Source of the DNA: Camelus ferus
Lineage: Eukaryota
DNA length: 63,973 nucleotides
Reading direction: 5' to 3'
NCBI RefSeq assembly: GCF_009834535.1
Contig: NC_045696.1
Coordinates: 3,908,001-3,971,973 of the forward strand
Every line of letters begins with the position of its first letter. Position 1 is the stretch's first letter. Positions 59,457 through 60,812 of this stretch are shown here, one piece after another. The translations under genes were made by a program, and so were the position numbers. A model generated the notes under the pieces. That model was not told the DNA's origin. It searched no databases and saw only the letters and a list, made by a program, of their open reading frames with translations.

Positions 59457-60812
59457 ATGGGAGCCTCAAAGTCAAAGCCGACAGCTCTGGACTGTGTGAT
59501 TAAGAATTTCAAAACGGAGTTCTCAGGAGACTATGGAGTTTAAATGACCCCTGGCAGGCTCCGCACTGTGTGTGAGCTTGAATGGCCAACCTTCGGAGTC
59601 AGGTGGCCCCAGGAGGAACTCTGGACCTAGCAACAGTGCGAGTGGTCTATTGAATAATCACTGGAATGCCAGGCCACCCAGATCAACCCCTGTACATTGA
59701 CTCCTGGCTGAATATCGCCCAGACTCTACCCCCATGGATTCGGTTCTGCTCAAATGGACCTGGACAATGCAAGATATTAGCAGCTCAGCCGGTCCAGGCC
59801 AAAAAGACAGACAGAGAAAAGCTTATTTTCCAGGGAAACACAGAGGATGAGATGAGCTTGCCCCCTCCGTATGCCCCCAGGGCACCGACACCTCCGATCC
59901 CTCTGGAGACACTACCACCCTCTGTGTCACCACCTCCCCAACCTGAGGACCCAGAGGCAGAGCCCAGCCCCCAGCCTGAGCCGGTAGGAAGGAGACTCCG
60001 CTCAGCACAAGCCGGGAGGCCAGCACCGCCGGCCCTCCAAATGCCGCTGCGGGAGACACAAGGGCCGCAGCAAACTGGGGAGGATGGGACTGTTCAGCCC
60101 GGGCGCCCCGTACTCTGCTATCAACCCTTTAGCACCACAGCCCTTCTCAATTGGCGCCATCATACTCCTTCCTACTCTGAAAAGCCGCAGGCATTTCAAT
60201 CACATCATGGTCTGAACAGAATTAAGAAGAGCTTCCACAGTAATAACAGATGAACAGCCACTGGTGAACCGGTCAGGAATTTTGGCCTGCCCTCCAAAGA
60301 AAAGGAGCAGAAAGTGTCGGAGCGGGCTGCGGATGGCTTCAGGGGGAGCGGCCACCCGGCGGTGGCAGCAGCAGCCCCTGCGGCCCCGGCACCTCCGTCA
60401 CCTCTGCCGCTGCCTCGGCCGCCGCCTCCGCCGCCGCCATGGCAACTGGGGGGGAGCGCCGGCTCCTGCCCAGCCCTGAAGCGATGCTGGGACAGTCATG
60501 GGGCTCTGTCGTGCATATGCCAATATTTGGTCTCTGTCCAGCCCACGATGATTTCTACTTGGTGGTGTGTAACAACTGTAATCAGGCTGTCAAACTGCAG
60601 GCTCTGATTGACCTCGTAGAGTCTGTCTTCCATTCTCACCATCCCACCTGGGGAGATGTCCGCCAGCTGCTTCTGACTCTTTTCAATACAGAGGAGAAGA
60701 GACACATTGTCACTGAAGCATGAAAACGGCTGCAGGGCCGAGTCCCCAGGGACACACTGCATGTTGAGGGGTGAGCACGACACGGGCCCCTGACACCAGA
60801 CCAGACTGGGAC
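59457..60812 (+). pseudogene. gag: ERV gag remnant (MA, Pro-rich p12-like region with PPPY, CA N-terminus), interrupted by the ATXN7 insert
   Basis: MGASKSKPTALDCVIKNFK..., PPPYAP late domain, YQPFSTTALLNWRHHTPSYSEKPQA // LIDLVESVFHSHHPTWGDVRQLLLTLFNTEE, PDWD; in-frame stops and frameshifts. Confidence 0.9.
60193..60602 (+). pseudogene. ATXN7: Captured, spliced, exon-permuted ATXN7 (ataxin-7) fragment inside ERV gag
   Basis: Encodes SERAAD, MATGGERRLLPSPEAMLGQSW, MPIFGLCPAHDDFYLVVCNNCNQAVK and, placed first, KPQAFQSH; these match the recalled ataxin-7 N-terminus; no introns. Confidence 0.9.

Follow-up and report, generated by a model that had tools for sequence, protein, structure and literature searches.

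The end of a 63,973-base stretch of the Camelus ferus genome (contig positions 3,908,001-3,971,973, referred to here as the window) is occupied by a provirus of about 5.8 kb, a gammaretrovirus-like endogenous retrovirus (ERV) whose gag gene is broken in early capsid (CA) by an insert made of exons 2 to 5 of the host gene ATXN7. The exons are spliced, circularly permuted and present for one turn only, and the insert is bracketed by two copies of an 11-base sequence (the 11-mer) that both parents, gag and ATXN7, carry in nearly the same form. Insert-free relatives of the provirus have a single 11-mer at the same point, and the insert itself is found in at least 38 proviruses, all of which go back to one capture. 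The best explanation is likely to be copy-choice by reverse transcriptase (RT) onto a co-packaged host circular RNA (circRNA), with entry and exit at the same microhomology.

The insert and its two parents

The two 11-mers lie 410 bp apart, start to start, in early CA, where the gag frame encoding ...SYSEKPQA is broken (Table 1). A preliminary description of the window had placed them at these coordinates, with gag upstream and ATXN7 downstream of the left copy and the reverse arrangement at the right copy. Both statements are confirmed, with ...SYSEKPQA encoded before the left copy and LIDLVESV... after the right one. Between them, in sense orientation relative to the provirus, the insert runs from the tail of exon 5 through exon 2, exon 3 and the tail of exon 4 to the head of exon 5, and introns are absent. 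The parent gene lies on the minus strand of contig C17 in the same genome, where exons 2 to 5 (numbered by position within this analysis) measure 98, 355, 69 and 105 nucleotides (nt), 627 nt in total, and are each bounded by ag and gt. The host exon that contains the 11-mer encodes a peptide identical at 33 of 34 positions to Ataxin-7 (PDB 7ktr chain N, residues 133-166). Host ATXN7 reads AAACCGCAGGCATTT, exactly as had been predicted, its 11-mer being AAACCGCAGGC followed by ATTT. The expectation that the two parents would carry the 11-mer in the same frame also holds, as the host codons GTC AAA CCG CAG GCA TTT (VKPQAF) are in the same phase as GAA AAG CCG CAG GC in gag.

Exon 5 meets exon 2 in a non-colinear junction at exact splice sites. 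In the host, exon 5 ends with GCATTATG before gtaagt and exon 2 begins with GTCTGAACAG after ttatag; in the window, CATCATG runs directly into GTCTGAACAG, the exon-5 end ..TATG that precedes gtaagt being fused to the base that follows ttatag (ttatag then GTCTGAAC). Immediately upstream of the back-splice junction the host sequence differs from that of all 22 full-insert proviruses. The junction between exons 2 and 3 (AAAAG then GAGC) and that between exons 4 and 5 are retained, and the insert contains exons 2-5 only. The permuted exon order, with the donor of exon 5 fused to the acceptor of exon 2, therefore supports a circular template. On C17 the ends of the insert correspond to 14512695-14512666 and 14512770-14512685, and since these intervals overlap on exactly the 11-mer (C17 14512695-14512685), the content amounts to one turn plus 11 nt. 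No A-run or poly(A) is present at either end of the insert, in agreement with the preliminary description. By its junction, its exon content and the absent poly(A), the insert can be classed on sequence grounds as a circRNA-derived pseudogene.

The exon 3 portion differs from the host in its repeats. Host exon 3 (L015, C17 ~14551350) has a run of 13 CAG, and the ERV copies have shorter, interrupted runs, with longer ones in only two of them, L059 (insert of 336 nt) and L028. The GC-rich stretch 3' of the CAG run also differs from the host in all ERV copies, either because it was lost in the ERV lineage or because the host gene has changed since the capture.

Filled and empty sites

When the genome was searched with the 399 nt that separate the 11-mers, 42 matches were obtained; there were 43 candidates, of which 40 were scored, and the resulting counts are lower bounds. 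The matches consist of the window itself, two host exons, two secondary fragments and a further 37 places, spread over 14 contigs (70-83% identity), and gag lies on both sides of the match at all 37. This gives at least 38 insert-bearing proviruses, 22 of which, including the window, carry the full permuted insert (class B) and 16 only its 3' part of about 230 nt (class C); L038 was dropped as the same place as L010. The exon 4-5 segment is present in all 38 copies, and the back-splice segment in 22/22 of class B and 0/16 of class C. A 94-nt deletion that joins exon 3 to exon 4 is found throughout, the 86 nt inside it being absent from 38/38 copies. The copies likewise lack 53 nt that follow the CAG run in the host, save for GCC-repeat matches of 17-26 nt in four of them. 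Because the 94-nt deletion is common to all copies, there was one capture followed by spread: the capture is a single event in the ancestor of at least 38 copies and is not private to the window locus. Independent captures of the full and the 5'-truncated forms are ruled out by the same deletion.

The empty site was read from the 30 best Gag_p30 loci, of which 13 are insert-free (class A), 12 belong to classes B and C, and five (L024, L029, L033, L040 and L042) were left out as other families or unaligned. All 13 class A proviruses read tctgaa-AAGCC[G/A]CAGGC-tatgattgac, with one 11-mer and no base missing or added, two of them with CpG-type variants. A 211-nt query with the empty site at its centre is contiguous in at least 26 places (95 candidates, 40 scored), and in the insert-bearing copies the alignment breaks at positions 101 and 107 of this query, that is, within the 11-mer. 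The preliminary description had foreseen a single 11-mer in insert-free relatives and no loss of viral sequence, which is what was found, but it had also expected GCTCTG at this point, which is seen in 0/13 class A copies, all 13 having GCTATG. TCT follows the right 11-mer in 11 of the 22 copies of class B, the window among them, and arose later, in the window's sub-lineage.

The two parents differ at position 3 of the 11-mer, where 13/13 class A copies have the gag-type AAG and the host type is AAA. The left 11-mer of class B has AAA in 19/22 copies, AAG occurring only in the window, L006 and L053, and the right 11-mer is AAA in 15/22 and AAG in 7/22; in class C the right copy is AAG in 15/16. 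A target-site duplication (TSD) would put the viral base in both repeats, and is therefore excluded. Insertion as a TSD-flanked product of the L1 retrotransposon is ruled out by the host-type bases in the repeats together with the absent poly(A) and the exact one-turn content, and the insert has neither of the marks of an L1-mediated processed pseudogene, a 3' poly(A) and a TSD copying the target. The combination seen in the window, with AAG in the left repeat and AAA in the right, is secondary and not original. As minus-strand synthesis proceeds from right to left and the left copy has AAA, the exit switch from the circle to gag followed the copying of the host A, which places it in the pair of A's with which the homology begins at its 5' end. 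The entry switch can be located only to the 11-mer as a whole and, if the ancestral right copy was AAA, would fall inside the eight identical bases CCGCAGGC.

A homology of this length at the junctions is very unlikely to be accidental. When a class A provirus of 8,119 nt is compared with the 627-nt circle, 49 of 5,084,343 position pairs (9.6e-6) match at 10 or more of 11 positions, which puts the probability of a junction landing on such a homology by accident at about 1e-5. In the window, the degenerate 11-mer AARCYGCAGGC has three matches against 0.24 expected, and 0/100 shuffles reached three. The third match, AAGCTGCAGGC at 25490-25500, lies far from the provirus and is probably a chance occurrence.

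The insert-bearing proviruses also differ in the viral sequence that they have lost. Relative to the class A provirus L065, which served as the reference for deletions (identity between its long terminal repeats (LTRs) 98.6%, TSD GGAC/GGAC), position 3234 is joined to 5375 and 6895 to 7341 in the window's type, 3951 to 6408 in a second full-insert type (L066), and 4109 to 7259 in class C (L067, L068). There are thus at least three different internal deletions among insert-bearing types, and gag is broken by the insert in all of them. Because of the large deletions and the broken gag, all insert-bearing types are helper-dependent. Class C copies start with tctgaaAAGCCGCC joined to CAGCAACAG.. 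in 16/16 cases, the first 7-8 bases of a virus-type 11-mer running into exon 3 immediately ahead of the CAG run via a 5-nt overlap, GCCGC. This class would most simply derive from another template switch, in which RT left an insert-bearing RNA for one that was insert-free or of the AAG type.

In an insert tree rooted on the host sequence, the window's type is basal, and class C together with its nearest class B relatives forms a derived clade (Shimodaira-Hasegawa-like approximate likelihood ratio test, SH-aLRT, 91). Terminal branches on the gag flanks are 0.05-0.12 in the window's type, 0.036-0.096 in the second type, 0.002-0.052 in class C and 0.029-0.084 in class A. LTR identity, measured on one or two copies per class, is 93% in the window, 98.2% in L066, 97.2% in L067 and 96.0% in L068. 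From the branch lengths, the LTR identities and the host-rooted insert tree, itself weakly resolved, it follows that the insert-bearing lineage was long active and that the window copy is among its older members. Two class C copies, L032 (C37:17066129, +) and L034 (C37:18360568, -), lie about 1.3 Mb apart and are near-identical, with terminal branches of about 0.002, suggesting one integration that was segmentally duplicated afterwards.

A functional ATXN7-capsid fusion protein was considered as a product of the insert and is ruled out by the frame shift, by a private 2-nt loss and by broken frames. A 94-codon open reading frame (ORF) at 60439-60723 fuses ATXN7 residues (MATGGERR...MPIFGLCPAHDD...) to capsid, and is open only through the loss of 2 nt near 60513, a change confined to the window copy. 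The ATXN7 frame is shifted by the ancestral deletion of 94 nt, and the frame that is open across the right junction is short in most of the 38 copies and broken in nearly all, one sub-lineage having common in-frame stops (AGTAATAGGG). It is also doubtful, in our estimate, that the insert was itself what made the defective lineage successful, as opposed to a passive passenger. Such an effect could arise from an RNA element favouring packaging or stability, or from an interfering Gag, produced from the split CA, that biases particles to the defective genome. The observations that bear on it are the retention of a core of about 230 nt, from the CAG run to the zinc finger, in each of at least three successive structural forms that differ in their viral deletions, and the copy numbers, at least 38 insert-bearing as compared with at least 26 insert-free places. 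If it were true, the locus would also be the first record from nature, resolved at its junctions, of a retroviral RT going once round a packaged host circRNA.

Proposed template switching and its alternatives

The junction anatomy, the empty sites, the sequence of the host parent, the single origin and the amplification are all directly observed. The sequence of events that would account for them begins with a gammaretrovirus-like ancestor of the ERV family co-packaging a 627-nt circle of back-spliced ATXN7 exons 2-5. During minus-strand synthesis, RT copying gag RNA 3' to 5' would have reached AAGCCGCAGGC in early CA, where the nascent DNA end could re-anneal to the near-identical AAACCGCAGGC in ATXN7 exon 5. 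RT would then have copied the circle once (exon-5 head, exons 4, 3 and 2, the back-splice junction and the exon-5 tail), come round to the same 11-mer and returned to gag. With a single site serving for entry and exit, the product would be a clean sense insertion bracketed by two 11-mers, with the viral bases intact and the gag frame destroyed. The recombinant would have integrated in the germ line and afterwards been moved in trans for a long time, with insert-free relatives as helpers. Meanwhile the lineage would have diversified, through differing internal deletions and through the microhomology switch at GCCGC that gave the 5'-truncated form, and the window would hold an old copy of the oldest sub-lineage. 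The sense orientation of the insert supports this mechanism, since template switching from RNA to RNA requires it, and the spread was retroviral, the window copy having LTRs and a 4-bp TSD and the other copies lying on 14 contigs. The switch out and back at the same 11-mer, as proposed in the preliminary description, is thus supported, but the event belongs to an ancestor of at least 38 copies and did not take place at the window locus.

The insertion could instead have been made in DNA, if complementary DNA (cDNA) of the ATXN7 circRNA, produced by L1 or another RT, was joined into an integrated provirus by target-primed reverse transcription or microhomology-mediated end joining, and the provirus was later transcribed and mobilised in trans. 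With homology at the 11-mer joining both ends, the product would be near-identical; circRNA-derived pseudogenes of unknown mechanism do exist (PMC4897178), and the later spread is retroviral under either reading. However, there is no A-run, and the repeats are not a copy of the target, as host-type AAA predominates on the left (19/22) and on the right (15/22). The cDNA would have to comprise exactly one turn and to have been opened at precisely the single 11-mer with a match in the target, and the sense orientation would be a one-in-two coincidence. Moreover, no stand-alone ATXN7 retrocopy was found, all 37 places other than the window and the gene itself being in gag, and an insertion at the DNA level appears unlikely. 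The order of the captures raises a different question, since both junctions of class C are of the virus type (AAG in 16/16 copies at the left and 15/16 at the right), as would be expected if class C had been captured first, by joining gag AAGCCGC to exon 3 before the CAG run, and the full circle had been added later by RT switching through homology to the ATXN7 circRNA and returning at the 11-mer. The internal deletions common to both classes are also allowed by this order. Against it stand the basal position of the window-type full-circle copies and the placement of class C in a derived clade, the changes away from the host that class C and its nearest full-circle relatives have in common, the longer terminal branches of the window's type, and the lower LTR identity of the window in comparison with the two class C copies. 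We regard such a two-step origin as a slim possibility.

A template that was never circular is a slightly slimmer possibility again. A linear transcript with repeated exons, arising from trans-splicing or from a since-lost tandem duplication of exons 2-5, or two ATXN7 mRNAs copied in turn, might have supplied the same content; trans-splicing also yields an exon 5-exon 2 junction at exact splice sites that is indistinguishable in sequence, and non-colinear junctions can have other origins (Dong 2016, PMC4897178). However, each exon is present once in the gene as it now stands, within the 70 kb examined, and neither exon 1 nor exon 6 or any later exon is present in any of the 22 full-insert copies, as judged from the sequences of 13 distinct copies besides the window and from a comparison by segment. 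Two independent jumps exactly onto exon ends would be improbable, and the 5' exons of human ATXN7 are described as a source of circRNA in the parts of PMC13313202 cited here.

Copy-choice onto a circRNA remains the favoured explanation, and several points weigh against it. We infer the exon 2-5 circle as a physical molecule in this species, its packaging and the switches inside the particle. Taken alone, the letters of the insert would fit a circle or a linear transcript with repeated exons equally well, and a switch within the particle would leave the same sequence as microhomology-guided joining of cDNA into proviral DNA. The homology used is not special in itself, as the 49 matching position pairs represent about 30 distinct sites and such homologies are not rare. 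Both crossovers had been expected inside the shared 11-mer; the exit is placed within its two 5' A's, but the base at position 3 of the ancestral right 11-mer is ambiguous and the entry is placed only somewhere within the 11 bases. The sub-lineage trees are weakly resolved and star-like, with 28/48 and 23/36 inner branches open. Finally, the mark of template switching is not found on every rearrangement, as microhomology was sought at the window's CA-pol deletion junction (L065 3234 joined to 5375) and none was found.

The provirus and its relation to known systems

A 4-bp TSD is the integrase signature of the gammaretrovirus-like group. The window provirus is flanked by such a duplication and has LTRs of the form TG..CA, and its Pfam matches to Gag_p30 (E 2.3e-8, on the gag sequence 3' of the right 11-mer) and TLV_coat identify it as a gammaretrovirus-like (class I) ERV. 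A Pfam search of the frames 59666-60250 and 61569-62039 matched no family. The two LTRs are 93% identical over 213 nt, and a longer local alignment has 271 matches and 30 mismatches; both end in CA, the 5' copy starting with TG and the 3' copy with CG. A second internal deletion of this copy lies at the pol/env boundary, 62327-62328 (L065 6895 joined to 7341). The leader at 59003-59452, which is unalignable also to the class B copies L003, L008, L009 and L010, matches 39 other places at 79-89%, some of them adjoining Gag_p30 matches of another ERV lineage (e.g. C17:2664xxxx). Judged from this ancestry, the window's sub-lineage is apparently a mosaic recombinant. Three places on C17, at 36274548, 36280198 and 36285846, match the leader with equal scores and follow one another at intervals of exactly 5,650 bases, which looks like a tandem array of an ERV-related unit. 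In each of six sequencing runs of unstated kind, under three organism labels, 44-47% of the words sampled from 59400-61400 occur, a share that is not used as evidence here.

Table 1. Features of the provirus and of its ATXN7 insert, in window coordinates (MA, matrix; UTR, untranslated region; TM, transmembrane)
Feature	Positions	Strand	Remarks
TSD AGGG, 5' copy	57819..57822	+	directly before LTR start TGTGAAGG
5' LTR (TG...CA)	57823..58239	+	pairs with 3' LTR 63305-63626
Leader 5' of gag ATG, different ancestry (apparent mosaic)	59003..59452	+	unalignable to insert-free provirus L065
gag 5' part (MA, p12 with PPPY, first ~40 CA codons), ends ...SYSE	59458..60181	+	L065 2280-3020, 89%
Left 11-mer AAGCCGCAGGC (exit crossover)	60182..60192	+	host-type AAAC.. 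here in 19/22 full-insert copies
ATXN7 exon-5 tail, 17 nt from 11-mer to splice donor	60193..60209	+	C17 14512684-14512668; host then gtaagt
Back-splice junction, exon-5 donor to exon-2 acceptor	60209..60210	+	found in 22/22 full-insert copies
ATXN7 exon 2 (5' UTR exon, host 98 nt)	60210..60304	+	84% to C17 14564913-14564816; ends ag/gt
ATXN7 exon 3 (start-codon region, shortened CAG run), gapped relative to host, ends in deletion 8-mer AGTCATGG	60305..60501	+	
94-nt deletion junction (AGTCGTGG in exon 3 / AGTCATGG in exon 4) and exon-4 tail	60494..60514	+	
ATXN7 exon-5 head (zinc-finger codons MPIFG...NQAV)	60515..60591	+	96.5% to C17 over 86 nt
Right 11-mer AAACTGCAGGC (entry crossover)	60592..60602	+	
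gag CA resumes (LIDLVESV...)	60603..60815	+	L065 3015-3234, 90%; Gag_p30
CA-to-pol internal deletion junction, ~2.1 kb missing	60815..60816	+	L065 3234 joined to 5375
pol remnant (3' RT, RNase H, integrase), many stops	60816..62328	+	L065 5375-6895, 89%
env remnant (TM part) past second deletion	62327..63304	+	L065 7341-8329; TLV_coat E 6e-30
3' LTR	63305..63626	+	pairs with 5' LTR
TSD AGGG, 3' copy	63627..63630	+	after ..GTAGCA

Helper-dependent ERV lineages that spread in trans, with coding-defective copies as numerous as or more numerous than coding-competent ones, are represented in mouse by ETn/MusD. The ATXN7-bearing lineage is set apart from these by a host circRNA insert in CA and by at least three independent internal deletions. 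Capture by an acute transducing retrovirus, in which a read-through transcript takes up colinear exons of a downstream gene and the 5' junction is formed in DNA or by splicing, was considered and rejected: the exon order here is circularly permuted, and a single homology underlies the two junctions.

Template switching of LTR elements onto packaged cellular RNA, guided by microsimilarity, has been described by Tan et al. (2016, PMC5131818). In the parts of that paper cited here, as in the ATXN7 family, cellular RNA is copied at short homologies, both LTRs are kept and the chimera is re-mobilised non-autonomously. The templates in those cases are linear mRNAs, however, with two differing switch points and with the interior of the element partly replaced in all of them, and the word 'circular' occurs 0 times in the paper. 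The window copy shows both LTRs and a TSD, as in LTR-mediated retroposition, and microsimilarity at both switch points (10/11). Its interior has not been partly replaced, nothing having been lost at the site, as would be expected for a circular template. The use of one homology for both entry and exit, with all viral bases kept, would thus follow from the circularity of the template. The capture of FAM8A1 by HERV-K (Jamain 2001, cited in PMC5131818) similarly involves a mammalian ERV, a processed host gene fragment and microsimilarity at the fusions, but, as presented in the passages cited, it concerns a single locus and a linear mRNA, and amplification is not mentioned.

Both elements of the proposed capture have some precedent. 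Human ATXN7 circRNAs of 336-1106 nt, all including exon 3, are listed in the parts of PMC13313202 cited here, and host circRNAs in HIV-1 virions are reported in the portion cited of a 2026 preprint (10.64898/2026.01.21.700838). In the literature searched, which left most subscription journals outside so that absence is unproven, neither ATXN7 sequence in an ERV nor a junction-level circRNA capture by a retrovirus was found. For circRNA-derived pseudogenes, LTR-mediated retroposition was only suggested in the excerpt used of a later review.

The closest comparison is with the mouse circRFWD2 pseudogenes, which have LTR-rich flanks and a mechanism that was called mysterious (Dong et al. 2016, PMC4897178). 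These resemble the ATXN7 inserts in being free of introns, in having the non-colinear back-splice junction, circle exons only and no poly(A), in occurring as dozens of copies from one circle, and in their LTR flanks. Host, gene and virus differ, and neither an empty site nor homology at the junctions is described there (PMC4897178). The ATXN7 family, unlike circRFWD2, sits at one point in gag, its insert-free relatives and parent gene are known, and both its junctions lie on one 11-mer. It thus supplies pieces that Dong 2016 left open, namely the parent gene, many empty sites, dozens of filled sites and single-microhomology junctions. The signature is searchable, as a clean insertion in an ERV that comprises one turn of a circle with the same short homology at both ends. 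As a genomic fossil the family is consistent with the packaging of circRNA by retroviruses, for which the 2026 preprint is the only report in HIV-1, and it forms an unusually clean record of circRNA written back into DNA. In this way it joins, as a junction-resolved new member, two known kinds of event, the LTR-associated circRNA-derived pseudogenes and LTR-mediated retroposition.

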